A stretch of DNA of 64,000 nucleotides. Origin: an uncultured bacterium (GTDB lineage: Bacteria > CAIWAD01). Within the stretch, counting starts at the first letter, position 1. Each line of letters starts with the position of its first letter. Below the pieces are notes generated by a model. The model saw only the letters and a list, made by a program, of their open reading frames with translations. It did no database searches and was not told the origin of the DNA. The stretch is taken from the NCBI GenBank assembly GCA_903910645.1, contig CAIWAD010000040.1:14768-78767 (forward strand). The letters are read 5' to 3'. A program made the translations under genes and the position numbers. Shown in pieces: positions 26,638 through 48,063 of the stretch.

Positions 26638-27104
26638 GAGGGACTCTCCTCCGGGGCGAGGCGCCCTTGCAAGAGCGGGCGCAGGGAATTGGGCATGCGG
26701 ATGGCGCGATTGCGTCCGGGGCCTTTCTCCATGAAGCAGTGGCGCGTGTGGCCCGTGTAGCACAGGGCCTGGCCCACCCAGGCCTCATAGGCGATGAGGA
26801 ACTGGATGTCCGATGGCCCTCCGCCTTTCATCACCGGGCGGAAGCCGGCCTTGAGCCGCAGTTCGTCGTCGTAGGTGGCAGCCAAGTGGTAATCCACATG
26901 AAGGGACAGAACTGGCAGCCACAAGCCCTGCTCCTCCAGATCGCGGTAGCAGTGGCCACTCAGGCGAAGCAATTCCGTGCGAGCCTGATCGAACCACACG
27001 GCGGCATGGCCGTGGTAGGCGAAGCGCATCTGGTCCGTCTCACCGTAGCGCACGCGCAGGCGGCAGACTTCGCGCAGGGCGGCGGGCCCGGCATCAGGCA
27101 TCAT
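26634..27104 (-). CDS. Acyl-CoA thioesterase (4HBT / YbgC-like hot-dog fold)
   Basis: [29 protein letters not shown]... typical YbgC/4HBT N-terminus. Confidence 0.7.
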
Positions 27105-28044
27105 AAATGCCCATGGCCTCGAACTTGGCCACGCGGCGGGCGATGCGTTCCTCCACGCCCAGGGCCTCCAACTCGTCCAAATGGCGCACCACGGCCTCTT
27201 TCAGGCTCATGGCGGCGGCGTCATGGTCCCGATGGGCACCGCCCAGCGGTTCGGACACCAGCTCATCCACCACGCCCATCTTCAGCAGGTTTCCGCCGGT
27301 GAGGCGCATGGCCTCGGCGGCATCCTGGGCGCGGCCGGCATCCCGGAAGAGGATGGACGCGCAGCCCTCCGGACTGATCACAGAATAGATGGCGTGCTCC
27401 AGCATGAGAATGCGATCCCCCACCGCCAGCGCCAAGGCGCCGCCGCTTCCCCCTTCCCCGATGACCACGGTCACCACCGGCACGCGCAGGCGGGCCATTT
27501 CAAAGAGGTTGCGGGCAATGGCCTCCGCCTGGCCGCGGGCTTCGGCACCCAGGCCGGGATAAGCGCCCGGCGTGTCCACCAGCGTGATGATGGGCCGACC
27601 GAAGCGCTCGGCGGTCTTCATGACGCGCAGGGCCTTGCGGTAGCCTTCCGGTTGGGGCATGCCGAAGTTGCGGTAGATGTTGCTGCGCGTGTCCCGGCCC
27701 TTCTGGTGCCCGATCAGGGCCACGCTGCGCCCGCCCAGCCGCCCGAAGCCCGCCACGATGGCGTGGTCGTCGGAGAAGGCGCGGTCGCCGTGGAGCTCGG
27801 TGAAGTCCGGGCTGATGCGCTGGAGATAATCCATGGTGAAGGGCCGCTGGGGATGCCGCGCCACCTGCACGGTCTGCCAGCAGCTCATGGAGCTGTAGGT
27901 CTCCTCCTTCAGGCGGGCCAGCTTGGCCTCCAGGCTGGCGATCTCCTGGCGCATGTCCACACGGGCGTTGGCCCGCATCTCCTCCAGCTGACGCTCCAGC
28001 GCCGCCACCGGCGCTTCAAAATCCATGGGGCTTGTTTGTGCCAT
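27094..28044 (-). CDS. accA: Acetyl-CoA carboxylase carboxyltransferase subunit alpha
   Basis: ...[13 protein letters not shown]...[26 protein letters not shown]...[12 protein letters not shown]; ATG 28042-28044 with AAGGA RBS; the longer ORF-track start is rejected. Confidence 0.9.
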
Positions 28045-28054
28045 GTCCCGTCCT

Positions 28055-28789
28055 TCAGATGCGGCCCAACAGGGCGCGCAGTTTGAGTTTCCACACCATC
28101 CATATGGCCTCGCGCACAATGGCCTTGCTCATCTTGCTGTGGCCCTGCAGACGGTCCACGAAGATGATGGGCACTTCCTCGATGCGCAGGCCCTTCCGCC
28201 ACACCATGAAATTCACCTCGATCTGGAAGCTGTAACCGCCGCTGTGGATGCGGCCCAGATCCAGTTTCTCCAGCGTGGTGCGGCGGAAGCACTTGAAGCC
28301 GCTGGTTGCGTCCCGCACAGGCATGCCGGTGATCCAGCGCGTGTACAGGCTGGCGCCGTAGGAAAGCAGAAGGCGGGACAAGGGCCAGTTGACCACGTTG
28401 ATGCCCGTCTTGTAGCGGCTGCCAATGACCAAATCACAGTGCTCGATGGCTTTAAGAAAATCCTTGAGCACGGCAGGGTCGTGGGAGAAATCCGCGTCCA
28501 TTTCGCACACGGCGTCATAGCCGCTCTCCACGGCCCAGCGGAATCCCGCCACATAGGCCGTGCCCAGTCCCAGCTTGCCGGGGCGATGCATCACATGCAC
28601 GCGGGGATTGGCGGCGGCCAGGCTGTCGGCGATGCGGCCGGTGCCATCGGGGCTGCCGTCGTCCACCACCAAGAGATCCAATCGGGGATCCTGGAGCAGC
28701 ACCTGGACGGCGATGGCCTCCAGGTTTTCCGCCTCATTGTAGGTGGGAACCACCACCAGCACCCGCTCGGGTCTCATGGGCACATCCAT
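28055..28789 (-). CDS. Polyprenol-phosphate mannosyltransferase-like GT2 (Dpm1/Ppm1 family)
   Basis: [19 protein letters not shown]...[10 protein letters not shown]...[10 protein letters not shown]...; start ambiguous among ATGs at 28777, 28789 and 28828. Confidence 0.8.
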
Positions 28790-28812
28790 TTCTTCACGAC
28801 CGGCAATGCCGA

Positions 28813-29748
28813 TCAGTTGTTCGACCATATTTCCGGCTGGTCGGCCAGCCAGCATTTCAGCGCGTCTTGAATGTCGGGAAAGCGAAGGTTCAGGGCCGCC
28901 TCCGTCTCCTGCAGCATCAGCCCCCCTTGCAGAGGACGCGGCGCGGCTTGTCCCAGCTCGGCGGTGGTGACGGGACGCACCAGAGATTCCTCCGCTCCCG
29001 CCAGGCGGGCCAGCATTTGCGCCATGGCGTAGCGGCTCATGTGTCCCCGCGAAGCCGCGTGGAAGAGCCCGGTGCGGCGCATGAAGAGGGCTTGCCGCAT
29101 GGCATTGGCCAAATCCAGCGCCCAGCAACAGGAGCCCAGCTGATCCGTCACCACTCGGATGGGGCGTCCTGCCCGCAATTCACCCAGAGCCCATTCGAAG
29201 AAGTCCGGCTTCACCCGCAGGGCCTTGCCGAAGAGCACGATGGTGCGGAAAATGGCGTGGGGGATCTCACCGCCCCGTACTTCATTCTCCGCCGCCAGCT
29301 TGCTTTGGGCATAAACACCCCGCGCCTGGGGAGGATCCTCGGGATGATAAGGCCCCTGCAGGCCATTGAAGACATAATCCGTGGAGACATGGCCAAGCCA
29401 CACACCATGGGGACGGCAGCAGGCCACCAGGCTGCGCGTCAGCTCCACATTGGCCCGCCAGCATTCCTCCCGGCGGGTCTCGGCGCCGTCCACATCCGTG
29501 AAGGCGGCGGCGTTGATCACGGCGTGGGGGCGGAAGTTCCGCATGTGGGACACCAGCTCACGGCGGGACACGCCACCCAATGGAGCATAATGAAAGCCCG
29601 CATGGGCCACGAAGCTGCGCTCCTCCAGCCCCAGGCCCAGCACCTCCGCATCAGGCAGCAGGACCCGCAGGAGATGTTGGCCCAGTCGGCCATGGCAGCC
29701 GGTAAGCAGAATGCGGGGACGATCTTCCCCGGTGGTGGCGGCATCCAT
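28813..29748 (-). CDS. rfbD: dTDP-4-dehydrorhamnose reductase
   Basis: ILLTGCHGRLGQ...HVSTDYVFNG...YAQSKLAAE RmlD motifs; the ATG at 29746-29748 overlaps the purE stop. Confidence 0.85.
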   Translation of the reverse strand: MDAATTGEDRPRILLTGCHGRLGQHLLRVLLPDAEVLGLGLEERSFVAHAGFHYAPLGGVSRRELVSHMRNFRPHAVINAAAFTDVDGAETRREECWRANVELTRSLVACCRPHGVWLGHVSTDYVFNGLQGPYHPEDPPQARGVYAQSKLAAENEVRGGEIPHAIFRTIVLFGKALRVKPDFFEWALGELRAGRPIRVVTDQLGSCCWALDLANAMRQALFMRRTGLFHAASRGHMSRYAMAQMLARLAGAEESLVRPVTTAELGQAAPRPLQGGLMLQETEAALNLRFPDIQDALKCWLADQPEIWSNN

Positions 29749-30212
29749 CAAGGCAGACGGGCCCCCGCCTCCATGAAGGCGTCCAGCTTCCTGGCCATAT
29801 CGGCGTCGCCCACGGACAAGATGCGTGCCGCAAGCACCGCGGCATTGATGGCGCCGGCCTTGCCCACGGCCAGGGTGGCCACGGGAATGCCGGCGGGCAT
29901 CTGCACGGTGGCCAACAGGGCGTCCAGCCCACCCAGGGGCGAAGCGTCCAGGGGCACGCCAATCACCGGCAGGGTGCTGTGGGCCGCCACGGCCCCCGCC
30001 AGATGGGCAGCCATGCCCGCGCCACACACAAGCACCGCCACACCCTGGGAACGGGCCTCGCGCGCCAGACGCGCGGTCTGCTCCGGATTGCGGTGGGCGC
30101 TGGAGATCCTCATCTCCGCCTGAATGCCGAAATGGGCGTACCAGGGGAGCGAAGCCTCAAAGACCGTGCGATCACTTTCGGAACCCATCAGGATCAGAAC
30201 ACGGGCGCTCAT
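29748..30212 (-). CDS. purE: N5-carboxyaminoimidazole ribonucleotide mutase
   Basis: VLILMGSESDRTVFEAS...SAHRNPEQT...GAGMAAHLAG; GGAGGAGGA RBS. Confidence 0.9.
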   Translation of the reverse strand: MSARVLILMGSESDRTVFEASLPWYAHFGIQAEMRISSAHRNPEQTARLAREARSQGVAVLVCGAGMAAHLAGAVAAHSTLPVIGVPLDASPLGGLDALLATVQMPAGIPVATLAVGKAGAINAAVLAARILSVGDADMARKLDAFMEAGARLP

Positions 30213-31267
30213 TCCTCCTCCTCCGGTTGCAGGGGGCCAATGGAACTGCCTTCGGCGTTGGTGCCCGCGAAGGTGGACACCAACAGGACCAGTTCGTGCA
30301 GGCTGGGAGACAAGGGGCCCTCGGTGCGGGCCACCGCCGCGTCAATATAAAAGGTGCGTCCTTGGCTGAGGCCCCGCGCGCCGGGAACATGCACCGCGTG
30401 GAAGAGAAAGGATGCGCCGGGCAGGGAGGGCGATTCCCACAGGCCGGCCAGCCGGGTGGCGGCCAGGCCATTCAGGCGCAGGGTGTCCAGTTCAAGCGGT
30501 TGGGGAAGGCTGATGTCCGTGTCCAGGTAGGCCTGCCCAAGGGCCTGGCGCTGGGCCAGCAAGTGGGACGCTTCGCCGGCAAGGCTGTCCAGGCCATCCA
30601 CCCAGTGCACGGTGATCCAGCGGTCGGGACGCAGAGCCCTGAAGCGGATGAAGGCGGGGGATTCCGCCCCCTGGATGATGAACCAGTCCTGGGGAATGGC
30701 CAGGCGGAAGCCGCAGGCAAGGGCCAGACTGTCTTCCAGGGATTGTTGCAGGGCGCTTGAGCGCAGGCCGCTTCGCGCCTTTTCTTCTTCGTGATCCACA
30801 AAGGCCTGTCGCAGATCCTGGGCCGCGGCCAGGAACTGGCGGCGGAAGCTGGCCGCGCCGGGTGCCGCGGCAATCACCAGGAGCTGGCCGCTGGCGAAGG
30901 CCTGGGGCTTGCGCAGCCAGAAACTCTCCTCCTTGCGCACGCGATCGCGCAGGGCGGGGTCCATCAACCTTTCCGCAAGCGCGGCCACAGGTCCCCCGGC
31001 CACGCCATCGTGCAGGATAAGCAGGTTGCGCGCGGACAGGGACAGGTCAGGGGTGGTGGCATTGCCCCAGCGCCAGGAGATGCGGCGCTCGGGCCGTGGG
31101 CAAATCCAGCTTTCCGCCAGCCACTGGTCCAGCAGTGGGGCCAGCTCCGCATGGCGTGAGCTGTCCGCCAGCACGGTGATTTCCCAGGCATCCCCCGTGG
31201 CCTGGGGACGGGCGCAGCCCAGCAGCCAGGCCACCACCAGCAAGGCGGCAAGGAGGCGGCCCATCAT
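30209..31267 (-). CDS. Hypothetical lipoprotein (possibly a DUF4837-like family)
   Basis: Lipoprotein signal MMGRLLAALLVVAWLLGC; ATGA overlaps at both ends; the family assignment is only a recollection. Confidence 0.5.
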   Translation of the reverse strand: MMGRLLAALLVVAWLLGCARPQATGDAWEITVLADSSRHAELAPLLDQWLAESWICPRPERRISWRWGNATTPDLSLSARNLLILHDGVAGGPVAALAERLMDPALRDRVRKEESFWLRKPQAFASGQLLVIAAAPGAASFRRQFLAAAQDLRQAFVDHEEEKARSGLRSSALQQSLEDSLALACGFRLAIPQDWFIIQGAESPAFIRFRALRPDRWITVHWVDGLDSLAGEASHLLAQRQALGQAYLDTDISLPQPLELDTLRLNGLAATRLAGLWESPSLPGASFLFHAVHVPGARGLSQGRTFYIDAAVARTEGPLSPSLHELVLLVSTFAGTNAEGSSIGPLQPEEEE

Positions 31268-33618
31268 GGCTCCGTCGTGACATTCCCGGAGGTGGCATCC
31301 GGTGCCCCGGCAAGGGGAAGAACCAGACCCAGCTCCCGCGCCGCCTGGTTGAAGAGAGGTCCTGTCATGCCAGCCTGGGCGGCCTGCTGCGCGAGCTCCC
31401 GCGCCGCGTCCGGACCCATGATCCGCATGCGGAAGCTCAGCCATTGGGCCAGGCGGCCATCCATGCCCGCCGGGGCGCTGGGCCATTGCACGGACTGGGA
31501 ATGCAGGCGATCCGCCTCCTGCAGGAGGGGCGTGGCCTCGGCGCCCCTGCCGGAGGCCGCCAGGGTGGAGGCGCTGCGTTCAAACACATCCGCCAGCAAT
31601 TGCAGCGCAGCGGCCTGTCCATAGGCCCGGTGGCCGCCCTGACGCATGTCGGCCTCCGCCTCCTGCACCAGGGAAGTGGCCTGGTTGCGTGCGCCTTCCA
31701 GGTCCCCCTGCTCCAGCAACCGGCGTATGCCCACCAGGACCAGATCCGCCGTGCCCGTCGTGGAGGCCATTTCCTCCTTCAGGCGCTGGATGCCGGAATC
31801 CAGAGCGGCGGGATCCTTCTTGCGGAAAATGAAAACGGCGTCGTGGTCGTAGTAGCGCAGGCTGAATTCCGCCGTGTGGTCGTCCACGGGAAAACCCAGC
31901 ACGGCGGGAAGCTCCTGGAAAACCGTGTCCACGGTGAAGCCCAGGCGTTCGGCGAAAAGCTCCTCGTAGAAGCGGCGCTCCGCCGGATATCGGCTGCAGC
32001 GGTCATAGCCCAGTTTGCGATTGGCTTCCAGGATGGCTGCCCATTCCACCTGGCGCAGGCGCTCGCCCAGGAAATCCAGCTTCTCCGCCTCCGTGGAACC
32101 CGTGGCGCGATAGACGGTGGGAATCTCCATGCACACATTGCGGTAGCGGGGCATGTGAAGGACCGGCTTGATGGAATTGGCGCTGCGCTCGTGCAGCAGG
32201 GCCACGCCTTGGGGCAGGTGGGCCGCCAGCCAGCGCCCGGCGGCGATGCGGCTGTCCTCTTTCCCGTGCACGCTGGCCAGTGCGGCGGTCCACGCCAGGG
32301 ATGGCAGGGCCACGGCCGCCACCAAGAGCCAGACCAGCACCCGGGCGGCGGAATTCCTGCGCGCCATTTCCACCAAATCCCAAAGCAGGACGGCGGCCAT
32401 GATGGCCAACAGGGGAAGGAAGGGCAGGGCGTAACGCATGAACAGCACCTTGGCGCCGCCCGTGAGGAGCAGGCCGGGCAGGAACCAGACCAGCAGCATC
32501 CAATCGGCGGGACGGCGCTTCCAGGCCAGCCAGGGCAGCGCCACAAGGCCTGCCATCAGCAGGAAGGGCCCGGCGGCCCACCACAGCACATTCCCCACCA
32601 GGAAAGGGAAGGGCGAGATGTCCTGGAACTGGATCTGGAAGGGGTAATAGAATTCACCGCGCACATTCTTCAGGATGTGCACCAGCCCAAAGGCGTGGTC
32701 GGCGAAGAGATAGGTACGCCAATCCAGGATGGCGTAGGGATTCATCAGGAAGAACACCGCCACCACGCCCGCCCCCGCAGCCCACAACCTGATAGTGAAC
32801 AGACGGCGCAGCAGGCTGGTGGCCCTGGCTGCGGCACCGCCAGGCAGGGGATCGCGCAGCAGCTCGGCCGCCACCAATGGAAGCGCCACCAGGGCGGCGT
32901 TGATCTTGGTGGACACGGCCAGACCCGCCGCCAGCGTGGCCAGCACCAGATCCAGATCCACATTCAGCGGTCCCACTTTCCGCAAGGCCGTCTGCCGCGG
33001 GCGCGCCAGCAGCCGGGCGCTGTGGAAGAAGCTCCACAGAATGAAGAAGACCATGGGCATGTCCACGGTGCCGAAACGGCCGCTTTGGGCGTGAAAGGCC
33101 GCCCCGGCCAGCAGCAGGGCCGCCAGGCGCGCCACGCCGCGTCCGTAGAGAACATGGGCCGCGCCGTAAAGCAGGGGAATGCAGGCAAGGCCCAACAAGG
33201 CGGTCAGCCAGCGCACGGCCAGCCAGGTGTTGCGGAAACTGCGCGGGTCCTGCTCGTCGAAGGGCGTGAAACTCCCCAGGGCGGCGGCCACATTCACCAC
33301 CGCGCTGTGCAGATAGATGGTGGTGGCGCCATAAAGGCTGTAATCCACCTTCTCACCATAGAGCTCGCCGGTGGGCCGCCAGCTGTCGGATTCGGTGAAG
33401 AGGCGGGCGGCGCGGATATTGGAGGCCTCATCCGGGTGGAAGGCGTAGAAGTGGCCCTCGCCACGGGCACCGGGCAGGGCTGGATCGAAATCCGTCCAGC
33501 CCCAGTCCAGGCCGTTGAAGCGCCAAATGGCCGCCAGCGCCATGATGAGCACCAGAATCAGATCCAGTCCCAGGGTCCGGCGGCCCAGGCGAAGCTCAAC
33601 AACACCCTGATTCAGCAT
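31264..33618 (-). CDS. Integral-membrane GT-C glycosyltransferase (ArnT / PMT / GT39-GT83-like) with a C-terminal TPR domain
   Basis: About 10 predicted TM helices in the N-terminal ~450 aa with an ArnT/PMT-like DE-loop region; C-terminal ~250 aa of TPR-like repeats; ATG 33616-33618. Confidence 0.7.
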   Translation of the reverse strand: MLNQGVVELRLGRRTLGLDLILVLIMALAAIWRFNGLDWGWTDFDPALPGARGEGHFYAFHPDEASNIRAARLFTESDSWRPTGELYGEKVDYSLYGATTIYLHSAVVNVAAALGSFTPFDEQDPRSFRNTWLAVRWLTALLGLACIPLLYGAAHVLYGRGVARLAALLLAGAAFHAQSGRFGTVDMPMVFFILWSFFHSARLLARPRQTALRKVGPLNVDLDLVLATLAAGLAVSTKINAALVALPLVAAELLRDPLPGGAAARATSLLRRLFTIRLWAAGAGVVAVFFLMNPYAILDWRTYLFADHAFGLVHILKNVRGEFYYPFQIQFQDISPFPFLVGNVLWWAAGPFLLMAGLVALPWLAWKRRPADWMLLVWFLPGLLLTGGAKVLFMRYALPFLPLLAIMAAVLLWDLVEMARRNSAARVLVWLLVAAVALPSLAWTAALASVHGKEDSRIAAGRWLAAHLPQGVALLHERSANSIKPVLHMPRYRNVCMEIPTVYRATGSTEAEKLDFLGERLRQVEWAAILEANRKLGYDRCSRYPAERRFYEELFAERLGFTVDTVFQELPAVLGFPVDDHTAEFSLRYYDHDAVFIFRKKDPAALDSGIQRLKEEMASTTGTADLVLVGIRRLLEQGDLEGARNQATSLVQEAEADMRQGGHRAYGQAAALQLLADVFERSASTLAASGRGAEATPLLQEADRLHSQSVQWPSAPAGMDGRLAQWLSFRMRIMGPDAARELAQQAAQAGMTGPLFNQAARELGLVLPLAGAPDATSGNVTTEP

Positions 33619-33647
33619 CTCTCTCCCCGATCACCTGACACACTCTC

Positions 33648-33790
33648 CGCAGCTCTCGTCTTCGAGCTTCGAATATCCTTCACAGCGCAAACGGTTCGCG
33701 GATTCCCGCTCTGCCAGCCCTGAACAAGCCGGGATCTCTCTTCAGCACAGAGTCCCGCTTTCGCGGGTATGACGGGTCAGCGTCCCGGAC
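33648..33790 (+). repeat. Dispersed structured intergenic repeat, copy A (core GTCCCGCTTTCGCGGGTATGACGGG)
   Basis: Aligned by eye against copy B over ~130 bp. Confidence 0.65.
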
Positions 33791-33827
33791 AAACCCGCAG
33801 CCCAGCGCCTTCCAAAGAGGGGAAGCC

Positions 33828-34571
33828 TTAGCCCTTCCGCCCGGGGCCGTACGCTCCCCGCAGGCGCCGTCCGGCAATATGCAGCAGGCCTTTCAGGCTG
33901 CCTGCGGTATCCCGCAGCAAGCGTACGCGCGTGTCCTCATCGTTGGTCCAGATCACGGGGATTTCTGTGATGGAGTAGTCCAGGTGCCGGGCCAGAAAGA
34001 GGATTTCCGCGTCGAAACTCCAATTGGTCAAAGTCTGGCGGCTGAAGATTTCCCGAGCCGCATCCCGGCGAAACAGCTTGAAGCCGCAGGTGAAGTCTGT
34101 CACTTGCACGCCGGCCAGGGACTGGGCCAACAAGGTGAAGCCCTTGCCCATGCTCTCGCGCAACCAGGGCTGATGGCGGGCAATCACCGCCTGGCGGTTC
34201 TTGCGCGTGCCAATCATCACCGGATGACCGGCGTCCATGGAGGGCAGGAAATGTTCCAGCATGGACATGGGCGTGCTCTCGTCGGCGTCGCAGAACAGAA
34301 TGAACTCGCCCTGGGCCTCCAACATGCCCCGACGCACGGCGCCGCCCTTTCCAAGGTTCCTCTCGTTCACCAGCCCGGTGAAGAGATGGGCATCCCTGGC
34401 CGCCTCCCGGGCGGCCTCCAGCGTGCCGTCGCTGGAGCCGTCGTCCACCACCAGCACCTCATGGGCAGGCACCAGCCTGCGCAACACATCCACACTGCGA
34501 CGCAGGCTGGGGGCAATGCGCCTCTCCTCGTTCCACGCCGGGATCACCACGCTCAGGCGCAGCTCAGCCAT
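33828..34571 (-). CDS. GT2 polyprenyl-phosphate sugar transferase (ArnC/GtrB/DPM-like)
   Basis: LSVVIPAWNEERRI...VVDDGSSDGT...FCDADEST... the classical lipid-phosphate glycosyltransferase pattern. Confidence 0.8.
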   Translation of the reverse strand: MAELRLSVVIPAWNEERRIAPSLRRSVDVLRRLVPAHEVLVVDDGSSDGTLEAAREAARDAHLFTGLVNERNLGKGGAVRRGMLEAQGEFILFCDADESTPMSMLEHFLPSMDAGHPVMIGTRKNRQAVIARHQPWLRESMGKGFTLLAQSLAGVQVTDFTCGFKLFRRDAAREIFSRQTLTNWSFDAEILFLARHLDYSITEIPVIWTNDEDTRVRLLRDTAGSLKGLLHIAGRRLRGAYGPGRKG

Positions 34572-35682
34572 GCACTCTCTCCACTCTCTTGGTGATAAGG
34601 GGGGGAAGCCAGTTCACATCCTTCACCGTGTGCCGGCCTCTCAAGCGAGCGGCCAGGGCGATGCTGCCCGGATAATGCAGGGCCTGCAGCTCCGCCTCCG
34701 GTACCTTGCGCAGGGCCTGGATGCCACGCCGCGCCCGCAGATCCTCCGGCAGTCGTCGCACAAATCCCGCCACCCCGCGCAGCGCCGCCCAGGCATGGGA
34801 AGGGCGCCCATCCGCCAAATAGGAAAGCAGGGCCGCGCCGTCCAGGAACAAGCGCAGGGGCAGGCGGCGCCACAGCGTGCCGCTGCCGGCATTGCGCAAC
34901 AGCATGCGCAGACTGTTGCGGTGGTTCAAATAGACTTTCAACGGGGACTCCGCCCCCAGACTGTAGCCGCTGTGATGACGCACCTGGCTGTCGGGAACGC
35001 TTGCAATGCTCCATCCCGCCAGGCGCAACCGCCAGTCCAGATCAATCTCCTCCATGTGCATGAAGAAGCTCTCCTCCAGCAGGCCCACCTGGCGCAAGGC
35101 TTCCGTGCGCAGGATGCAGGCGGTGCCGGAGGCCCAGGCCAGCAGGCGCGCCTCCCGCCAGTTGCCACCATCCTCCTCCACCATGCCCAGAATGCGGCCC
35201 AGGGCGAAGGGAAAGGCGTAGACGTCCAACAGGCCGCCCGCCGCGCCGCTGTAGTCCAGTCTGCCGGGAAAGGGGATGCTGAGCAGGCGGGGCTGGGCGG
35301 CCCCCAGACCGGGATGGGCATCCATTTGCGCCACCAGTGCTTCCAGCCAGCCTTCGTCCTGTTCCGTGTCGTTGTTGAGCAGCACGGCATAGGCGCAATG
35401 CGGGTCGTCTAGAGCCGCCTGCAGGCCCACATTGCAGCCTCCGGCAAAGCCCAGGTTCCGCGTCTGGGCCAGGATTTCCACAAAGGGAAAGTCCCGACGC
35501 ACCATGGACAGGCTGGCGTCGGGACTGGCGTTGTCCACCAGGAGCACGCGGCACAGGTGGTGGCTGCCATGCAGGCTGCGCAGGCATGCCGCCAGGATGC
35601 CCTCACCCCCCGCATGGGGAATGATGACCGACACCCGGCGGGCCAGCGCCACCCCTGGGAGCTTCGTCTCCGCCGCCTCCAT
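34564..35682 (-). CDS. Glycosyltransferase family 2 (rhamnosyl/galactosyltransferase-like)
   Basis: SVIIPHAGGEGILAACL...LLVDNASPD...; the ATG at 35680-35682 overlaps the upstream stop. Confidence 0.75.
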   Translation of the reverse strand: MEAAETKLPGVALARRVSVIIPHAGGEGILAACLRSLHGSHHLCRVLLVDNASPDASLSMVRRDFPFVEILAQTRNLGFAGGCNVGLQAALDDPHCAYAVLLNNDTEQDEGWLEALVAQMDAHPGLGAAQPRLLSIPFPGRLDYSGAAGGLLDVYAFPFALGRILGMVEEDGGNWREARLLAWASGTACILRTEALRQVGLLEESFFMHMEEIDLDWRLRLAGWSIASVPDSQVRHHSGYSLGAESPLKVYLNHRNSLRMLLRNAGSGTLWRRLPLRLFLDGAALLSYLADGRPSHAWAALRGVAGFVRRLPEDLRARRGIQALRKVPEAELQALHYPGSIALAARLRGRHTVKDVNWLPPLITKRVERVHG

Positions 35683-38612
35683 CACGGCGTGGTGGCCGCC
35701 TGCTCTTCCGTGGCGGCGGGCAAGGGCTTGCCGGCGGCCAAGGCCCGCAAGCGCGCCAGTTTGTCCAGGGCGCCGGGATCGTTGGGGCTAAGTTTCAACC
35801 ACGCCTCCACGCTTCGGATGGCGGCGGCGTAATCGCCCTGGGCCTCCAGCACGCGGATCAAGCCACCCACCGCCTCGGGCTGGTCAGGCTGGAATTTCAG
35901 CACGGCCTCGTAGCGTGCCCGCGCGGCGGCCATGGCCTCCTTGTTCTCCTTGCCCAGGCTTTCCAGCACTGCGGCCGTCTGCAAACGCACCTGCTGGCTG
36001 GCATCCTCGGACGCCAAGCTGTCCAACACGGCCAGACCCCGCTTCAAGTCTCCCAGGGGGCTAATCCAGTAGCTGCCCAGGTAGAACCGCTCCTCCTGGC
36101 TCAGCTTGGCGGGGTCCTGGATTTCCAGGCGGCTGCGCAGGGCCTTGGCATCGCCCAAACGCTCGAACAGCAGGCCCAACTGCATGGTAAGCATGGGGCT
36201 GACGCTGGGCACCACCGTTTCGGGCAGAGCCTTGTCCATGCGGCTCAAGGTTTTCAGCGCCAGGGCCCGCTGCTTGTTGGCGTCCAGCTCCATGGCTTGC
36301 TGGATGAAGGCGCTGCGGTAATTCTGCACCAGCTTCTGGATGTTGTCGTCGTAGTAGACGCCGGAATCGTCCAGGCCACGCAGGTTCTTTTCCATGATAT
36401 CCAGCTTGGCGCCCAGCACGTCCGTGTCCACCGCATTTTCCCGCTGGGGCCGGTCCATGACGCGGTAGGCCAGGCCGTCCATGCGCAAGTTCCTGTCCAG
36501 GCCCACAAAATTGTCCCGGGAGGTGGTGACGGCAAAGTAAATGGGGCGCTTCCAGTTGTTGGCGCGCACAATCTCCAGGATCATGCGGTCCTGCACGCGC
36601 AGGAAATTGCGCTCGTTGCTGCCGTCGCCCAATGGAACGGCCATCACCGGCGGCACCTGGATGAGATAGGACTGGCCATCCGCCGTGCGCATGGGTATGC
36701 TGAAGGGCGGCAGCTCCGTGCCGGTCCACAGATCCGCACCCCAGTAGCGCCACTGGAAGGCCGGGTCCCCCGTGCCGTCAATGGATTCGGCAATCATGGT
36801 GTCGGTGAACTCCGCCGCCAAGGGCACGGTGGGGGCCTCGTCACGCAACTGCTTCACATACCAGCCGGTGTTGAGCAGGCTAAGGTTCACCACGCGCACA
36901 TCCGTGCGGAAGCCTTCCACAATCTGCAGGTACCACAAGGGGAAGGTGTCGTTGTCCCCATTGGTGAACAGAATGGCGCCTTCCTCCAGCGTGGCCAGGG
37001 CATTGCGGGCATAATCCTGGGCCACGAAGTTGCCGCTGCGGTCATGCACGAAGTAGTTGGCACGGGTCATGTGAAGGGGCAGCAGGGCGAAGAGGGCAAT
37101 GGCCGCCAGGATCTGCACCGGCGTGGCCCACTTGCGGGCCGCTTTTCCCAGATCCTGGATAAGCACCCAGGCTCCCAGTCCAATCCACAGCGCGAAGGCG
37201 TAGTAGGATCCCACATACGCGTAGTCCCGCTCGCGGGGCTGGGGATTTTCCTGATTCAGGTAGACGACAATGGCCAAGCCCGTGAGCAGGAAAAGGTTGG
37301 CCACGGTGAAAGCGCGCTTCCAGTCCTTTGCCACCTGGGCACCCAGACCCCACAGGCCCACCAGCAAAGGCAGACCGAGGAGCTGCAGGTTCCACGCCCC
37401 CGACGCCATGTCCCGCCCAATGAAATTCCAGTTGAAGTAGCGCACATACATGTGGCCAATCTGCCAGCCCAGGAAGTCCGCCTTGCGGCTCAGGAGCTGG
37501 GTGACGATGGACTCCGTGCCGTACTGCTCGCGGCTCAGGTAGGAGATGAGAGCGCTCAGGGTCTGGGGGTCGTTTTCATCCAGGGGCGGATTCAGGCCGC
37601 TGCGCAGGAAGATCAGCACATAGCTGAGATAGCCCAGCATGGCCAGAAGCAGACCGGCGCTGGCCAGGGCCAGGGGACGGTTGCCCTTGTTGCGCCCCAC
37701 GAAATGCAGCGCGGCCAGAACTCCCAACAGAGCCAGCAGGCCCACCAGAGCCGACCAATGCCCGCCCACGCTTTCCAGCCACTTGATGAACTTGGGCAGC
37801 CACAACACAATGCCGGGATAGAAGGGCAGAATGCTCAAGGTGCCCAGTCCCCAATAGAGCAGGAAATGCTCGAAGCGGAAGGGCTTGCCCTCCTGCCAGT
37901 GGAAATACACAACCAGGAAGACCATGGGCAGGGCCAGCACATTCAGCAAGTGCACGCCAATGGCCAGTCCAATGATGTAGAAGATGAGCAGCAGGATGCG
38001 GTCGCCATCGTGCTGTTGGCGCAGTTCGAACTGGTGCCATACGAAGGCCAGCCACACCACCAAGGCCGTGAAGAGCATGCTGATGGCGTAGACTTCCGCC
38101 TCCACCGCGTTGAACCAGAAGGTGTCCGTGGCCATGAAGGCCAGGGCGCCAATGGCCGCGCCGGCCAGCTCCTGCCAGCCCATGCTTTCCCTCGGCTTCC
38201 AGTAGCGGATCAAGTGCACGGTGGTGAGATAGAGCAGAAGCACGGTCAAAGCGCTGGTAAGCACGCTGATGAAGTTCACCCGGGCGCCAATGTCCTCGAA
38301 GAGAGGCACCATGGTGAAGAGCCGGCCCAGCATGAGGAAGAAGGGCGCGCCCGGCGGATGGGGCACGGACAAGCTGTAGGAGCTGGCGATGAACTCGCCG
38401 CAATCCCAAAAGCTGGTGGTGGGCGCCATGGTCATGAAATACAGGGTCAAGGACGACAGGAACACCAGCGTGGCCGTGATTCCATGCCACAAGCCGAAGT
38501 TGAAGGCGTTCGCTTCAATTCCCTGAACATTCTGTTGCGGCATGAAGGAGACCTTTTCCTGCGTGCGCAGGGCCGGATCCTTTTTCTGGGCAATGCGATC
38601 GGGGGATGACAT
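35682..38612 (-). CDS. Large membrane protein of the DUF2723 / GT-C-like family with C-terminal TPR repeats (976 aa)
   Basis: ...TSFWDCGEFIASSYSLSVPHPPGAPFFLMLGRLF... characteristic DUF2723 N-terminal motif; more than 12 TM helices; TPR tail; alternative ATG at 38543. Confidence 0.65.
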   Translation of the reverse strand: MSSPDRIAQKKDPALRTQEKVSFMPQQNVQGIEANAFNFGLWHGITATLVFLSSLTLYFMTMAPTTSFWDCGEFIASSYSLSVPHPPGAPFFLMLGRLFTMVPLFEDIGARVNFISVLTSALTVLLLYLTTVHLIRYWKPRESMGWQELAGAAIGALAFMATDTFWFNAVEAEVYAISMLFTALVVWLAFVWHQFELRQQHDGDRILLLIFYIIGLAIGVHLLNVLALPMVFLVVYFHWQEGKPFRFEHFLLYWGLGTLSILPFYPGIVLWLPKFIKWLESVGGHWSALVGLLALLGVLAALHFVGRNKGNRPLALASAGLLLAMLGYLSYVLIFLRSGLNPPLDENDPQTLSALISYLSREQYGTESIVTQLLSRKADFLGWQIGHMYVRYFNWNFIGRDMASGAWNLQLLGLPLLVGLWGLGAQVAKDWKRAFTVANLFLLTGLAIVVYLNQENPQPRERDYAYVGSYYAFALWIGLGAWVLIQDLGKAARKWATPVQILAAIALFALLPLHMTRANYFVHDRSGNFVAQDYARNALATLEEGAILFTNGDNDTFPLWYLQIVEGFRTDVRVVNLSLLNTGWYVKQLRDEAPTVPLAAEFTDTMIAESIDGTGDPAFQWRYWGADLWTGTELPPFSIPMRTADGQSYLIQVPPVMAVPLGDGSNERNFLRVQDRMILEIVRANNWKRPIYFAVTTSRDNFVGLDRNLRMDGLAYRVMDRPQRENAVDTDVLGAKLDIMEKNLRGLDDSGVYYDDNIQKLVQNYRSAFIQQAMELDANKQRALALKTLSRMDKALPETVVPSVSPMLTMQLGLLFERLGDAKALRSRLEIQDPAKLSQEERFYLGSYWISPLGDLKRGLAVLDSLASEDASQQVRLQTAAVLESLGKENKEAMAAARARYEAVLKFQPDQPEAVGGLIRVLEAQGDYAAAIRSVEAWLKLSPNDPGALDKLARLRALAAGKPLPAATEEQAATTP

Positions 38613-39024
38613 CCCACTCCCGAATTTGATGGTGATCGGCCTGTCAGATATTCGTCAAGAGTGACATTCCAGTGGGATCGCGTCCTGATCGTTCTGCATG
38701 GGGGCCGTTCACCAGGCACATGTGCGGCATGCGCAGGCGAAGGCCCAGCCAGCTGACCCGATTGGACTTGAAGACCGCAAGGAAACGAGCATCAAGGGAC
38801 TGCGGGTCAAAATAGGAATTCAACAACGCCTTCACTTGACTTATTTCCGTACAAGACGCAAATGTGAAGCCCCCATTGCCGGGGGCTCCACTACTGCCAC
38901 ACTAATCTGATGCAAGATGCCCATGGTGGGGACCGGATGGGGGTGGGCAGGGCTCCCCTTCGATGGAAGGAAGAAGCCACCGCCGCGCCTCCGCCCCCAT
39001 CGTCCAGGGACAGAATGCGGGCCC

Positions 39025-39047
39025 AGCGTTAACGGGAGCGTTAACGG
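39025..39047. promoter_or_regulatory. Tandem direct repeat AGCGTTAACGG-G-AGCGTTAACGG (each copy contains the palindrome CGTTAACG), a candidate transcription-factor binding site
   Basis: Seen in the 620-bp intergenic region that should hold the promoter of the DUF2723-GT2 gene array. Confidence 0.3.
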
Positions 39048-39184
39048 TTCCCCACTCTTGCGGAAAATCTGCGCCTTTTGCGGTTCGAAAGCCAATGAAG
39101 CTTGAGCCTTGCAAGGGTTTGGCGCCTTTGAAGAGGCCAAGATCCTGGTGCTTTCCCCATGCAGGACTGGCTTCCTGGCTGGGG

Positions 39185-39237
39185 TCAGTCCCGAATTCCG
39201 AATGAGAAAGTGCCGCTTTCGGGACATGACCAGGTCC
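39185..39237 (+). repeat. Dispersed structured intergenic repeat, copy F (3' module only: GTGCCGCTTTCGGGACATGACCAGGTCC)
   Basis: It abuts the ybgF stop codon. Confidence 0.45.
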
Positions 39238-39240
39238 ACA

Positions 39241-40011
39241 TCAAGAGCCCAGTTCCGCCAGGCGTTCCTTCGCCATTTCGGCCTCTGGGCGCTGGGGCCA
39301 CCGACTGCGAATGGTTTCCAGCAGACTGCGCGCCTGCTCCTTCTTCCCCTTGCCAGCCAGGATCATCGCCCGGCGCAGCATGGAGGCGGGCACCTGGGCA
39401 TGCTCCGGATGCTGCTTCTCAAAGGCCTGATACTGGATGAGTGCCGAGTCCGGCTGCTGTTCGCTTAGCCAGGTGTCACCCATCCAATAGCGGCAAAAGG
39501 CCGTCATTTCACCCTTGGGAAAGCGCGTCAGGTACTCGCGATAACCGGCCCGGGCCAATTGGGGCAGGCCGCGCACGCGATCCAGGCTGGCCTGGTTGTA
39601 AAGCCAGGAAGGATCCGCCTGGGCCAGGCTGTCCCGCTCCTGGCGCAAGCCCTGGCGGGCCAGAATCAGGTTCAGCTCATCCACTTTCTGGGCCAGACGC
39701 CGATTGTAGGTTTGGGCATCCTCCAGCGTGCTGCGCACTTCGGTGATCAGGCCGCGCAGGTCTTCCGTGCCTTGAAGCTGATCGGCCTTCAGGACGCGCA
39801 GCACGGTCTCCGTGTCGCGGAAGCGCTCCTTCAAGTATTCCACCCGGCCAATCAGCAGGCTGTCCTGATCACTCTGACGCAACTGGACAGCCTCCACCGT
39901 GCCACGGATGCTGGCCAGCTCCTCCTGGAAGCCCAGGATCTCCCGGCGGCTGGCACATCCGCCCACCAGCAGGGCGCCGGCAAGACTTGCGCGGATGACG
40001 AGGGATTTCAT
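39241..40011 (-). CDS. ybgF: Tol-Pal system protein YbgF/CpoB-like (lipoprotein, coiled-coil plus TPR)
   Basis: MKSLVIRASLAGALLVGGCAS lipobox; long coiled-coil then TPR; AAGGAG RBS; last gene of the tol-pal array. Confidence 0.65.
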   Translation of the reverse strand: MKSLVIRASLAGALLVGGCASRREILGFQEELASIRGTVEAVQLRQSDQDSLLIGRVEYLKERFRDTETVLRVLKADQLQGTEDLRGLITEVRSTLEDAQTYNRRLAQKVDELNLILARQGLRQERDSLAQADPSWLYNQASLDRVRGLPQLARAGYREYLTRFPKGEMTAFCRYWMGDTWLSEQQPDSALIQYQAFEKQHPEHAQVPASMLRRAMILAGKGKKEQARSLLETIRSRWPQRPEAEMAKERLAELGS

Positions 40012-40053
40012 GCACATCTCCTTGGAAAGCCCACCTGGGAATGCTCCCAGGGC

Positions 40054-41391
40054 CTACTCCACTTTCACCGGCTCCCAACTGGGGTTCTCACCACCGCCGC
40101 GGCTGATCTGCCGGCGACCGGTGCCATCCGCCATCATCACCCATACTTCATTTTTCCAGGTATAGGCCAGATGCTGACCGTCCGGTGACCAGCGCGGATC
40201 GAAGTGATTGCCCACCTCATCCGTCAGACGCACCCAGTCGCTGCCGTCCGGGCGCATTTGGAAAATCTGCCAGCCGTTGCGCTCCCGGCTGATGAAGGCG
40301 ATCCATTCCCCGTCCGGTGACCAGCTGGGGCAGTCGCTGCCCGTGCCCACAAAACTGATGCGTTGTTCGTCCATGCCGTCCACCATCACGGTGTAGAGCT
40401 GCAGGCTGCCACTGCGGTCGCTGCTGAACACCAGATGGCGGCCGTCCGGGGCCCAGGACGGATTGGTGTCGATGGCCTGATGCCGGGTCAGGCGGCGCGG
40501 TTCGCCCGTGCGGCGCCCGGTGGCGGGATCCATGGGGATGAGGTACAGGTCGGTGTTGGCGTTCACGGTGGCGGCGCAGGCCAGCCAGCGGCCATCGGGG
40601 GACCAGGCGGGGGCGGCTTCCGATTCCCGGCCGCCCAGCACCAGTTCCGCTTCGCCACCCGCCACCGGGCCGCTCCAGATGTCGGCGCCCCGCTCTGGAT
40701 GCACCTGGGTCCAGGCGTAGAAGCGTCCGTTGGGGCTCCAGGCGGGCATCACGCGGGTTTTGCCGCCACGACTGAGCACCAGGCGGTCTTCACCAAAGAA
40801 ATCCGCCAGCACCAGTTGGGTGCCCCCCTTGTCCGGCTGCACATAGAGCAGACGCGAGGCGAAGGGCGCCTTGTAGCCGGTAAGTAGCAGCAGAATCTCC
40901 TGGGCCATGTCCAGGGCGCGCTGTTCGGCATCGGCGCCCAGGGGCAGACTCCAGTCCGCCACCGGATCTCCGCCACTCACATTCACCAGGGCCAGGTCCA
41001 GGCGCGCGCCCTTGTCCTTCACCCTCTCCTCCAGACGCACCAGGCTGGCGGCTTCCGAGGAACTGAGCTGTTCGGCCTTGGGCTGGCCTTCCCACAATTT
41101 CAGCGTGCCCGCCAGAGCCAGTGCTTCGCGCAGGCGGTTCTCGAAGGTCTGCAAAGGAACAGAGCCCTGCAGGGCCGGCGCCAGCACAAGGCCGGGGCGA
41201 TAGTAACTGAGAGTGCGCGCCTCCAGCTTCACTTCCGGCACGGCGCCGGGCGGGAAGAAGCCGCCCTCGGGCACCTTGTCCTCGGCCCTTGCATCCCACG
41301 CGGACACAAGCACCAACAGGAAGAGCAGGACACAAAGCGTGGGAAGCGCATGTCCGGCGCTTGCCCGGCGGGGGGGATTACTCGTCCACAA
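40054..41391 (-). CDS. tolB: Tol-Pal system beta-propeller protein TolB
   Basis: Repeated WSPDG...L.F beta-propeller blades (WSPDGRWLA, WAPDGRHLVF, WSPDGEWIAF, WSPDGQHLAY); the start appears to be TTG at 41391. Confidence 0.85.
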   Translation of the reverse strand: MWTSNPPRRASAGHALPTLCVLLFLLVLVSAWDARAEDKVPEGGFFPPGAVPEVKLEARTLSYYRPGLVLAPALQGSVPLQTFENRLREALALAGTLKLWEGQPKAEQLSSSEAASLVRLEERVKDKGARLDLALVNVSGGDPVADWSLPLGADAEQRALDMAQEILLLLTGYKAPFASRLLYVQPDKGGTQLVLADFFGEDRLVLSRGGKTRVMPAWSPNGRFYAWTQVHPERGADIWSGPVAGGEAELVLGGRESEAAPAWSPDGRWLACAATVNANTDLYLIPMDPATGRRTGEPRRLTRHQAIDTNPSWAPDGRHLVFSSDRSGSLQLYTVMVDGMDEQRISFVGTGSDCPSWSPDGEWIAFISRERNGWQIFQMRPDGSDWVRLTDEVGNHFDPRWSPDGQHLAYTWKNEVWVMMADGTGRRQISRGGGENPSWEPVKVE

Positions 41392-47179: not shown

Positions 47180-48063
47180 GAGGCGTCCATGGCTTGCAGC
47201 AGTTCCACCAGGCGATCCAGCTCCTCCCGGGTGTGATACTCAATGCGGATCTGCCCGCGGTTGCGGTTGGGGCTGATGCTCACGCGGGCACCCAGGCAAC
47301 CGCAGAGGTTTTCCTCCGCCTGCAGGATGTCGAAGGGCTTCACCACCGCCGGCGCGGGTTGGGCCTCACGCTGGCGGCGCACCAGCTCCTCCAGTTGGCG
47401 GACGCTTAAATCCCGCTTCACGCAGAGCTGCCAGCAGCGGATTTTCTCATCGTCCGAGCCCAGGCCCAGCAACACCTTGGCGTGGCCGAAGGAGATCTTG
47501 CCCTCCTTCAGACTGACCTTGATCACCGTGGGCAGCTTGTTCAGGCGCAGCAGATTGCTCACCGCCGGGCGGCTCATGCCCAGGGTCTGGCCCAATTCCT
47601 CCTGGCTCATGCCGTGCTCCTCAATTAGCACGCGCAGACCGTTGGACAAGTCCAGGGGGTGCAAATCCTCGCGCTGGATGTTCTCCAACAGGGCCAGCTT
47701 CATCAACCCGCCTTCGTCCGGCCGCTCCCGCACAAGGGCGGGAATGGTCTTGCGTCCGGCAAGCTGGCTGGCGCGCCAGCGGCGCTCGCCGGCGATGAGC
47801 GTGTACAGGCCGCCGTCCTCGAAGACCAGCACGGGCTGCAACACGCCATTGGCGCGGATGCTCTGGGCCAGCTCCTCCAGCTCGGCGGATTCAAAGTCCC
47901 GTCGGGGCTGCTGGCGGTTGCGATTGATCAGTTCCAGGGGCAGCTGATGCACGCGCTCGCCGTCGGGAAGAGAAGGCTCGGTGGCTTGCGTGGCAAGAGC
48001 GGTGTCGGCGGGCTTTTGAATGAGGGCCGATAGGCCTCTACCCAGTGGTTTGGACCGATTCAT
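47176..48063 (-). CDS. parB: Chromosome partitioning protein ParB/Spo0J
   Basis: ParB box motifs (...YTLIAGERRWRASQLAG...), HTH (MSQEELGQTLGMSRPAVSNLLRL); ATG 48061-48063. Confidence 0.9.
   Translation of the reverse strand: MNRSKPLGRGLSALIQKPADTALATQATEPSLPDGERVHQLPLELINRNRQQPRRDFESAELEELAQSIRANGVLQPVLVFEDGGLYTLIAGERRWRASQLAGRKTIPALVRERPDEGGLMKLALLENIQREDLHPLDLSNGLRVLIEEHGMSQEELGQTLGMSRPAVSNLLRLNKLPTVIKVSLKEGKISFGHAKVLLGLGSDDEKIRCWQLCVKRDLSVRQLEELVRRQREAQPAPAVVKPFDILQAEENLCGCLGARVSISPNRNRGQIRIEYHTREELDRLVELLQAMDAS

Follow-up and report, generated by a model that had tools for sequence, protein, structure and literature searches.

Here we describe a cluster of predicted glycosylation genes in a 64,000-nucleotide stretch of DNA, referred to below as the window, from an uncultured bacterium of the lineage CAIWAD01 (assembly GCA_903910645.1, contig CAIWAD010000040.1, positions 14,768 to 78,767 of the forward strand). 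Open reading frame (ORF) listing and translation place eight consecutive genes on the minus strand between window positions 28055 and 38612. They include two large membrane proteins of 976 and 784 amino acids (aa) with the GT-C glycosyltransferase fold and three glycosyltransferases of family 2 (GT2). All eight ORFs of the initial annotation of this DNA were recovered on the minus strand, in the order, at the coordinates and with the sizes it had given. The array and its immediate flanks are laid out as follows.

39241-41391: ybgF/cpoB (itself 39241-40017) and tolB, upstream of the array
38613-39240: intergenic region of 628 nt between ybgF/cpoB and the DUF2723 gene
35682-38612, minus strand: TMEM260-like (DUF2723) GT-C protein, 976 aa (Pfam PF11028 and TPR_16/19/14)
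34564-35685, minus strand: GT2 enzyme, 373 aa (Pfam Glycos_transf_2 / Glyco_tranf_2_3)
33828-34571, minus strand: ArnC/GtrB/DPMS-like GT2 enzyme, 247 aa (phmmer against PDB sequences)
33619-33827, minus strand: spacer of 209 nt between the ArnC-like GT2 gene and the PMT-like gene
31264-33618, minus strand: PMT/PMT_2-type GT-C protein, 784 aa (Pfam PMT and PMT_2)
30209-31267, minus strand: DUF4837 lipoprotein, 352 aa (Pfam PF16125, LLGC lipobox)
29748-30212, minus strand: purE, N5-CAIR mutase (TIGR01162, Pfam AIRC)
28813-29748, minus strand: RmlD-like NAD(P)-dependent sugar-nucleotide reductase, 311 aa (Pfam RmlD_sub_bind)
28055-28828, minus strand: DPMS-like GT2 enzyme, 257 aa, with an alternative start at 28789 (phmmer against 5mlz)
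27094-28044: accA, downstream of the array

Read off the sequence from the DUF2723 gene downward, the junctions are TGATG, an 8-nt overlap, the 209-nt gap, ATGA, ATGA, TGATG and a 16-nt overlap (+23 if the alternative start of the DPMS-like gene is used), and accA follows at +10. Five of the seven junctions overlap, in keeping with the earlier description, and the spacer before the PMT-like gene is the one clear exception; the array genes are presumably co-transcribed. Transcription likely starts in the 628-nt region upstream of the DUF2723 gene, where GC content falls to 0.61 and which holds no convincing ORF, no Rfam family and no sigma-70 consensus; its promoter role is putative. A promoter and terminator scan of positions 27000-40200 gave nothing that exceeded the shuffled background, and an Rfam scan of the whole window returned no family at threshold. 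The spacer, as the sole real gap within an otherwise overlapping array, could hold an internal promoter; the scan found neither a terminator nor a promoter consensus in it, and in the related locus L081 the ArnC-like GT2 and PMT-like genes abut without it.

The array had been described as an uninterrupted minus-strand run. The run is real but not specific to the cluster, since a gene call based on GC content at third codon positions (GC3) puts nearly every gene from about 100 to 48900 on that strand, many of them housekeeping genes (folD, tldD/pmbA, rseP, dxr, def, accA, tol-pal and parAB). Long antisense ORFs lie opposite both GT-C genes (36297-38609, plus strand, 770 aa, and 31444-33723, plus strand, 759 aa), the one opposite DUF2723 clustering across 26 loci; both are shadow ORFs typical of high-GC coding DNA and not genes.

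The first gene of the array encodes a TMEM260-like GT-C enzyme that has a genuine TPR tail and has kept the catalytic aspartate of human TMEM260, confirming the view of it as a DUF2723-type GT-C protein with a TPR tail. Pfam finds PF11028 over residues 70-238 (198.5 bits against a cutoff of 24.2, E=1e-58) and TPR_16/19/14 matches at residues 890-955, and TMEM260_2 (PF28495) is listed in precomputed form for the identical protein P0001. When the first 723 residues were compared by phmmer with all PDB sequences, the single match was human TMEM260 (9rql, E=1.4e-18). In the HMMER alignment D70, within FWDCGEF, falls opposite D52 of the human protein, within GGDSGEL, which is its likely catalytic Asp (PMC10214176), and a second homologous stretch (residues 477-596 against 368-484 of TMEM260) reaches into the luminal domain. 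D70, E73 and an HPPG motif are invariant among 24 DUF2723 homologues, as is FTNGDNDTFPLWY, a bacterial motif where the periplasmic domain begins.

Human TMEM260, which O-mannosylates proteins in the endoplasmic reticulum (ER), has in common with the 976-aa protein PF11028, the GT-C fold and a non-cytoplasmic C-terminal TPR region. In the human enzyme that region is luminal and probably selects substrates (PMC10214176); the non-cytoplasmic placement of the bacterial tail is predicted from this homology. The homologous stretches take in the first membrane helices, loop 1 (which holds the catalytic Asp) and a portion of the luminal domain. In contrast to the human enzyme, the bacterial protein has about 250 additional residues, its periplasmic alpha/beta domain being larger and its TPR tail longer; its FTNGDNDTFPLWY motif is divergent in the aligned human segment; and its sugar carrier would be a bacterial polyprenol instead of dolichol, the human acceptor being IPT domains. 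An AlphaFold model of good confidence (pLDDT 84, pTM 0.81) comprises a multi-helix membrane module (about 40-523), a mixed alpha/beta periplasmic domain (about 530-745) and the TPR tail (about 756-959), with some eleven C-terminal helices. Foldseek searches of PDB with this model returned STT3/PglB, Pmt4, ArnT and ALG9/12 with probability 1.0 and TM-scores of only 0.3-0.5, which amounts to a generic GT-C match.

The DUF2723 family is very large: in a word-index search, 7997 of the 8000 candidates scored reached E<=1e-10. Named homologues come from Calditrichota, KSB1, Zixibacteria, Delongbacteria and others, and some are already labelled 'protein O-mannosyl-transferase family' in public annotation. 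A profile search for orthologues in model Bacteroidia returned only metagenome-assembled genomes (MAGs) labelled 'Bacteroidota/Bacteroidetes bacterium'. In some KSB1-type genomes the DUF2723 gene is followed directly by a second, tandem paralogue (12716-15364 in L016 and 12755-15415 in L022), an arrangement that suggests diversification of acceptor or donor specificity within the family.

The second large membrane protein, of 784 aa, is a divergent GT-C enzyme of the PMT/PMT_2 type. It exceeds the Pfam cutoffs for PMT (38.4 bits against 22.7) and PMT_2 (32.6 bits against 26.1), with only residues 128-251 aligning, and a profile of its family matches yeast Pmt2 (E=1.3e-5), Pmt1 and Pmt4. All of 20 homologues keep the tripeptide P62-D63-E64 of the first loop unchanged; in the model it starts the first loop helix, and D63/E64 are the putative counterpart of D77/E78 of Pmt1. 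The AlphaFold model (pLDDT 84, pTM 0.83) consists of a membrane module (about 16-452), an alpha/beta periplasmic domain (about 473-600) and eight helices (603-762), and its Foldseek matches are AglB/STT3, ALG12, ArnT and Pmt4 with probability 1.0. No MIR domain was matched by Pfam at E<=0.01 and no beta-trefoil is present in the model; the protein is therefore not a canonical eukaryote-type PMT. Both large proteins fall into the GT-C superfamily by profile, by PDB-sequence and by fold searches, and so pass the check on family placement that the initial annotation had set. Oligosaccharyltransferase (STT3/PglB/AglB) membership was rejected for both, neither having a WWD/WWDYG-like motif; the fold matches of the two models to such enzymes reach TM-scores of only 0.3-0.46.

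The 784-aa protein had been called an ArnT/PMT-like GT-C enzyme with a TPR tail, of which the GT-C class holds; the helical tail, of 160 residues, is only weakly TPR-like. Pfam finds no TPR in it, and the family profile gives weak tail matches to TPR proteins (E 0.007-0.1). A word-index search retrieved about 20 close homologues. With an exhaustive HMMER search the number rose to 1200 cluster representatives (E<=1e-10), whose identity is about 30% across residues 20-600/650; in the latter search the tail proved common only to the close relatives. Several of the roughly 30%-identical relatives carry true Pfam TPR tails, and others are fused to DUF2298 or NHL propellers. A TPR tail with a degenerate repeat is thus a plausible description.

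The three GT2 enzymes fall into different types. The 257-aa enzyme matches the catalytic domain of the Pyrococcus furiosus dolichyl-phosphate-mannose synthase (5mlz, phmmer E=4e-31, residues 20-248) and has a DAD motif at 111, a DxD-type motif. It reaches no NCBIfam equivalog cutoff. The match and the motif bear out the proposal of a Dpm1-like polyprenol-phosphate sugar synthase, and from its sequence the enzyme is a candidate polyprenyl-phosphate mannose (hexose) synthase. Its orthologues are 54-63% identical in KSB1, Calditrichota and unnamed-lineage loci and 78% identical in the close relative L001. The 247-aa enzyme, 29% identical to it, consists of the catalytic domain only, has a DAD motif at 95, and has ArnC (E=4e-19), GtrB (sll0501, 2.6e-14) and the P. 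furiosus synthase (1.4e-11) as its closest PDB relatives; its best NCBIfam matches are ArnC, PgfS and a dolichyl-phosphate hexose transferase, all below cutoff. By sequence, this protein too is of the polyprenyl-phosphate glycosyltransferase type. No hydrophobic or transmembrane segment was found in any of the three GT2s, which therefore lack the membrane helices of ArnC, GtrB and archaeal DPMS.

The 373-aa enzyme, adjoining the DUF2723 gene, is of another kind. Its NCBIfam matches (MftF, a rhamnosyltransferase and GlfT1) are all far below cutoff; alone it matched no PDB sequence, and a profile of its orthologues matched PDB entries only in the generic GT2 nucleotide-binding N-domain. It is a generic GT-A enzyme using nucleotide sugars (a Leloir enzyme) and not of the Dpm1/ArnC type. 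The statement that each GT-C gene adjoins a polyprenyl-phosphate GT2 is accordingly right for the PMT-like gene, next to its ArnC-like GT2, but wrong for DUF2723.

The DUF4837 protein (PF16125, E=5e-9) has a signal peptide with an LLGC lipobox and no PDB relative by sequence search, and purE, a housekeeping gene of purine synthesis, exceeds its equivalog cutoff (TIGR01162, 165 bits against a cutoff of 149.6; Pfam AIRC, E=3e-51). The RmlD-like protein matches Pfam RmlD_sub_bind with 187.5 bits (E=4e-55) and has a GxxGxxG motif at 17 and YxxxK at 146. It scores 188 bits against the TIGR01214 equivalog, short of the cutoff of 224. The earlier assignment to dTDP-4-dehydrorhamnose reductase is thus supported by the Pfam match and motifs but misses the equivalog cutoff; the protein probably is that enzyme. 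None of rmlA, rmlB or rmlC was seen among the window genes scanned. A sugar nucleotidyltransferase gene (NTP_transf_4 with hexapeptide repeats; 45947-47239, minus strand) adjoins parB and is a possible nucleotide-sugar supply gene.

Conservation of the array was followed by tblastn with the window proteins and by all-against-all ORF clustering of 81 loci, namely the window and the best 80 of more than 599 loci from a pattern scan that took one genome per species, each with 10-kb flanks. The full order (DUF2723, GT2, GT2, PMT-like, DUF4837, purE, rmlD-like, DPMS-like, accA) recurs in four independent contigs (L001, L081, L083 and a JGI contig), in L083 with a PMT-like protein only 45% identical. 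Upstream flanks vary between tolB-ybgF, a toxin-antitoxin pair with CitMHS, and a sigma-54 activator. Recurring in four independent contigs with different upstream flanks, the gene order is more than chance. The tol-pal linkage itself is not kept in L081, L083 or the JGI contig. The L001 record (CAYFPS010000006.1) is titled 'uncultured Bacteroidaceae bacterium', although its complete gene order matches that of this high-GC window and the proteins are 56-78% identical; the label is probably wrong, and those of several similar MAG records look unreliable.

Across the 81 loci, DUF2723 is linked to a GT2 of the 373-aa family in 22, and in about 20 of these the two genes are direct neighbours, -3 to +138 nt apart. 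In 18 loci a GT2 of the DPMS/ArnC type is found no more than 8.4 kb away, and in L067 and L079 it adjoins DUF2723 directly. DUF4837 lies downstream of DUF2723 in 16 loci; the RmlD-like gene is present in 14, purE in 13 and accA in 11. Linkage of GT-C and GT2 genes in relatives, on which the initial annotation had staked its proposal, is conserved, as the whole array in four contigs and as DUF2723 with its GT2 across phyla. The single 'super-cluster' it had envisaged is instead a composite. DUF2723 and the 373-aa GT2, followed by DUF4837, purE, rmlD-like, DPMS-like and accA, form an old block common to KSB1, Calditrichota and related candidate phyla. The PMT-like gene and the ArnC-like GT2 are absent from the cross-phylum loci (KSB1, Calditrichota, Neomarinimicrobiota and unnamed lineages); because these loci hold other genes at that position, the pair is a lineage-specific insertion into a variable slot of the older block. 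The slot, which separates DUF2723 from DUF4837, is filled in relatives by a flippase-like LPG_synthase_TM protein (12 loci), by a methyltransferase, by an outer-membrane beta-barrel or by a further copy of DUF2723; in several of them a fusion of a GT2 with a sugar-phosphate transferase is encoded downstream of the DPMS-like gene, ahead of accA. Such variable-slot contents are typical of glycan diversification.

Synteny of this kind could also arise if the genes shared no pathway at all, being neighbours only through a long co-directional string of core genes while the GT-C enzymes, the GT2s and RmlD served unrelated processes. The purE gene does sit inside the array, the minus strand carries nearly the whole gene complement between 0.1 and 48.9 kb, and relatives preserve the succession of accA, a thioesterase, def, dxr and rseP downstream. 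More fully, accA, the thioesterase and Trm112 keep their order as strictly as the array does, with yajC, def, fmt, DUF6588 and dxr added in L081 and the JGI contig and rseP in the latter. DUF2723 is also found among lepA, lepB and hemW in loci labelled Bacteroidota, Ignavibacteria and Chlorobi. It is hard, however, to see five complementary glycosylation genes, lipid-sugar synthases and GT-C enzymes, meeting within 10.5 kb if they were unrelated. The adjacency of DUF2723 and its GT2 persists across phyla with differing flanks, the slot repeatedly hosts other glycan genes, and the ArnC-like GT2 and PMT-like GT-C were gained together and kept together down to 45% identity. We consider the absence of a common pathway very improbable.

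Over all these loci, DUF2723 has the character of a core gene whose neighbours change from clade to clade, many of these being related to the envelope or to glycans. In 22 loci labelled Bacteroidota, Ignavibacteria or Chlorobi (among L024-L076) it lies directly downstream of a HemW-like radical SAM gene, and in most of those labelled Bacteroidota or Ignavibacteria, lepA and two signal peptidase I genes (lepB, lepB) precede the hemW-DUF2723 pair. This link with protein-export genes may be meaningful or plain housekeeping synteny. In loci with these labels DUF2723 is followed by a methyltransferase or GT4, by GT9, or by lpxA.

A further possibility is that DUF2723 acts as an O-oligosaccharyltransferase or ligase: the 373-aa GT2, with dTDP-rhamnose supplied through RmlD, and other cytoplasmic glycosyltransferases would build a short glycan on undecaprenyl diphosphate that is flipped and transferred en bloc to proteins. 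The top Foldseek matches of the DUF2723 model are STT3 and PglB, over 616-798 columns, and a donor glycan built by the GT2 would explain why DUF2723 and a Leloir GT2 are so tightly paired across phyla; the GT2 fused to a sugar-phosphate transferase in the relatives' block and the RmlD-like gene kept in 14 loci fit as well. The TM-scores to oligosaccharyltransferases are nonetheless low (0.3-0.46), and ArnT, Pmt4 and ALG9 score similarly, as a generic GT-C fold would. The window has no initiating phosphoglycosyltransferase or Wzx-like gene, the 373-aa GT2 scores 50 bits against a rhamnosyltransferase cutoff of 200, and TMEM260 uses a monophosphate donor, dolichyl-phosphate mannose (PMC10214176). 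En bloc transfer is thus quite improbable.

What the array very probably encodes is periplasmic glycosylation by GT-C enzymes from polyprenyl-phosphate-linked sugars. The organization we favour, and hold to be fairly probable, is two separable GT-C modules placed head-to-tail inside a long conserved housekeeping string. Module A would comprise the TMEM260-like GT-C enzyme with its periplasmic TPR tail, the 373-aa Leloir GT2 and, 6.5 kb downstream, the RmlD-like and DPMS-like enzymes; it is ancient and common to several candidate phyla of the Fibrobacteres-Chlorobi-Bacteroidetes (FCB) group. Module B, an ArnC/GtrB-like GT2 followed by the PMT_2-type GT-C enzyme with its TPR-like helical tail, is the lineage-specific insertion between the 373-aa GT2 and the DUF4837 gene. 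In each module a soluble or peripheral GT2 would transfer the sugar of a nucleotide sugar to polyprenyl phosphate on the cytoplasmic side; the DPMS-like enzyme would probably take mannose from GDP-mannose and presumably serve DUF2723. A transporter encoded outside the window would then flip the lipid-linked sugar, and the GT-C enzyme would transfer it to a periplasmic acceptor by means of its conserved Asp (D70 in DUF2723, D63/E64 in the PMT-like enzyme), the helical repeat tails selecting that acceptor. For DUF2723 the acceptor would most likely be Ser/Thr of exported proteins, which would amount to protein O-mannosylation. A protein acceptor is favoured there because of the homology to a proven protein O-mannosyltransferase and the TPR tail, and we put it at an even chance; for the PMT-like enzyme we put it somewhat short of that. 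The earlier proposal, either O-glycosylation of proteins in the periplasm or modification of envelope glycans, remains the best reading of the locus, drawn from homology.

The main rival explanation, unlikely in our estimate, takes up the second half of that proposal: one or both GT-C enzymes would add side-branch sugars to the lipopolysaccharide (LPS) core, O-antigen, lipid A or another polysaccharide, with the tails docking assembly machinery. A polyprenyl-phosphate GT2 gene directly upstream of a GT-C gene is the classical layout of the GtrA/GtrB/GtrC and ArnC/ArnE-F/ArnT systems (PMC11194591); it is found here too, in a pair kept in four relatives. Among solved structures the 247-aa GT2 is nearest to ArnC, followed by GtrB, and ArnT is a strong fold match, among the top ones, for both GT-C models. 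Other clades have GT9 heptosyltransferase, GT4 enzymes and lpxA as DUF2723 neighbours, several KSB1-type loci have a GT2 fused to a polyprenyl-phosphate sugar-phosphate transferase, and the array lies just downstream of the tol-pal/ybgF envelope genes, although that linkage is missing in L081, L083 and the JGI contig. Unlike the Gtr and Arn systems, the cluster contains no GtrA/ArnE-F-type flippase gene (all ORFs in 28055-38612 are assigned), its 247-aa GT2 is without the C-terminal transmembrane helices of ArnC and GtrB, and its GT-C enzymes bear helical-repeat tails that GtrC and ArnT do not have. It is the protein-directed GT-C enzymes, TMTC and TMEM260, that typically have TPR tails, not ArnT or GtrC. 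Moreover, within the DUF2723 family only human TMEM260 has been characterised, as a protein O-mannosyltransferase (PMC10214176), and both its catalytic Asp and its luminal domain are conserved in the 976-aa protein.

Two further known systems bear on the protein-directed reading. Protein O-mannosyltransferases of family GT39 working with a polyprenyl-phosphate-mannose synthase (yeast Pmt1/Pmt2, actinobacterial PMT with Ppm1) have in common with the 784-aa protein the PMT/PMT_2 match, the GT-C fold and, putatively, the first-loop DE motif, and a DPMS-type GT2 lies in the same gene string here too. In contrast to them, the 784-aa protein aligns over only about 120 residues to the Pfam models, has an extra alpha/beta periplasmic domain and a helical tail and no MIR domain, and the GT2 adjoining its gene is ArnC/GtrB-like, not DPMS-like. 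The ER O-mannosyltransferases TMTC1-4 (GT105) have the same architecture, an N-terminal GT-C module followed by TPR, with no direct sequence match detected; their luminal TPR repeats are thought to select protein clients (PMC10214176).

Several observations weigh against the pathway as we have drawn it. The order of the array is weak evidence of shared function, because unrelated downstream housekeeping genes keep their order equally well. The DPMS-like gene stands 6.5 kb from DUF2723, beyond purE, and most Neomarinimicrobiota, Ignavibacteria and Chlorobi loci have none within 10 kb. Three of three distant relatives of the PMT-like enzyme lack an adjacent GT2. As a cytoplasmic Leloir enzyme, the 373-aa GT2 cannot extend a periplasmic O-mannose and is the main element that the scheme does not account for. 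The window offers no flippase candidate: the array ORFs are all assigned, none as a transporter, and there is no LPG_synthase_TM homologue. A tblastn search of the window with LPG_synthase_TM, the GT2-phosphoglycosyltransferase fusion, GT4 and methyltransferase proteins from related loci likewise found none, only GT2 domains cross-matching. The neighbours of DUF2723 in Ignavibacteria (GT9 heptosyltransferase) and Chlorobi (lpxA) hint at LPS and not at protein, and the literature searched contained no functional or biochemical study of a bacterial DUF2723 protein.

Secreted proteins with C-terminal domains, heavily rich in Ser/Thr/Gly, had been put forward as natural substrates. Cargo of the type IX secretion system (T9SS) is indeed encoded, but neither the heavy Ser/Thr/Gly richness nor the substrate role found support. 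Three genes encode proteins with Por_Secre_tail.

101-3238, minus strand: T9SS cargo protein, 1045 aa
49042-50658, plus strand: T9SS cargo protein
50659-51681, plus strand: T9SS cargo protein

Their Ser+Thr+Gly content is 27-30%, against 17-23% in cytoplasmic window proteins, and each has 0-1 Bacteroidota-type sequons (D[ST][AILVMT]); in this small sample, comparison of sequons and Ser/Thr/Gly between exported and cytoplasmic window proteins showed no enrichment. The cargo protein at 101-3238 has HYDIN/ASH/DUF1573-type Ig-like domains and DUF6923 repeats. Since human TMEM260 mannosylates Ig-like IPT domains, Ig-like exported proteins might, as pure speculation by analogy, be the first candidates for DUF2723 clients. 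The two adjacent plus-strand cargo proteins have near-identical C-terminal regions of about 95 residues (AFQLG.A.PNPFNPVTTLSFTMAETG.ATLAV.NLAGVEVARPF...LYTLST..GVQTRKMILTK) and different N-terminal parts, which suggests that their sorting domain was recently duplicated or gene-converted.

A trio outside the array (6272-10263) had been read as GT2, GT1 and deacetylase-like; the GT2 (6272-7336) and a GT4/GT1 enzyme (7556-8830) are as described, but the 'deacetylase-like' ORF (8728-10278) has no Pfam match at E 0.05. It is one of four ORFs with a coding-type GC3 bias that lack a match at this threshold, and the minus-strand run ends with parB and parA.

8728-10278, minus strand: ORF of 516 aa
11088-13538, minus strand: ORF of 816 aa
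14210-15409, minus strand: ORF of 399 aa
56846-58459, plus strand: ORF of 537 aa
47176-48922, minus strand: parB and parA, at the end of the 48-kb minus-strand run

Beyond about 48.9-49.0 kb, genes lie on the plus strand; a replication origin may lie near this switch, although cumulative GC skew has no clear turning point there.

The gene content of the old block invites comparison with the general protein O-glycosylation of Bacteroidota, which belong to the same superphylum. There the core glycan is hexose (mannose)-deoxyhexose-glucuronic acid, and the transferase, the core flippase and the core-glycan enzymes are reported as unidentified (PMC12871550, PMC10897501). The block described here brings together an O-mannosyltransferase homologue, DPMS-like and RmlD-like enzymes and a GT2, a suggestive match to that core. 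It might follow that DUF2723 with the DPMS-like, RmlD-like and 373-aa GT2 enzymes is the initiating machinery of an FCB-wide general protein O-glycosylation, the PMT-like module being an add-on that decorates the same glycoproteins; this we regard as a long shot.

The locus is a well-conserved example of known enzyme families and not a new kind of system. Bacterial relatives of TMEM260 number in the thousands and are core-like in many FCB-group phyla, and none is the subject of a study in the literature searched; here one of them has a homologue of lipid-mannose synthases and other sugar enzymes as conserved neighbours, so that the locus provides a pathway model and a list of partner genes. 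Should a glycan prove to be the acceptor, this would simply be another envelope modification resembling Gtr and Arn. Should the acceptor be protein, O-mannosylation by the TMEM260 family would predate eukaryotes and operate in Gram-negative periplasms, and it could bear on the missing enzymes of Bacteroidota O-glycosylation.

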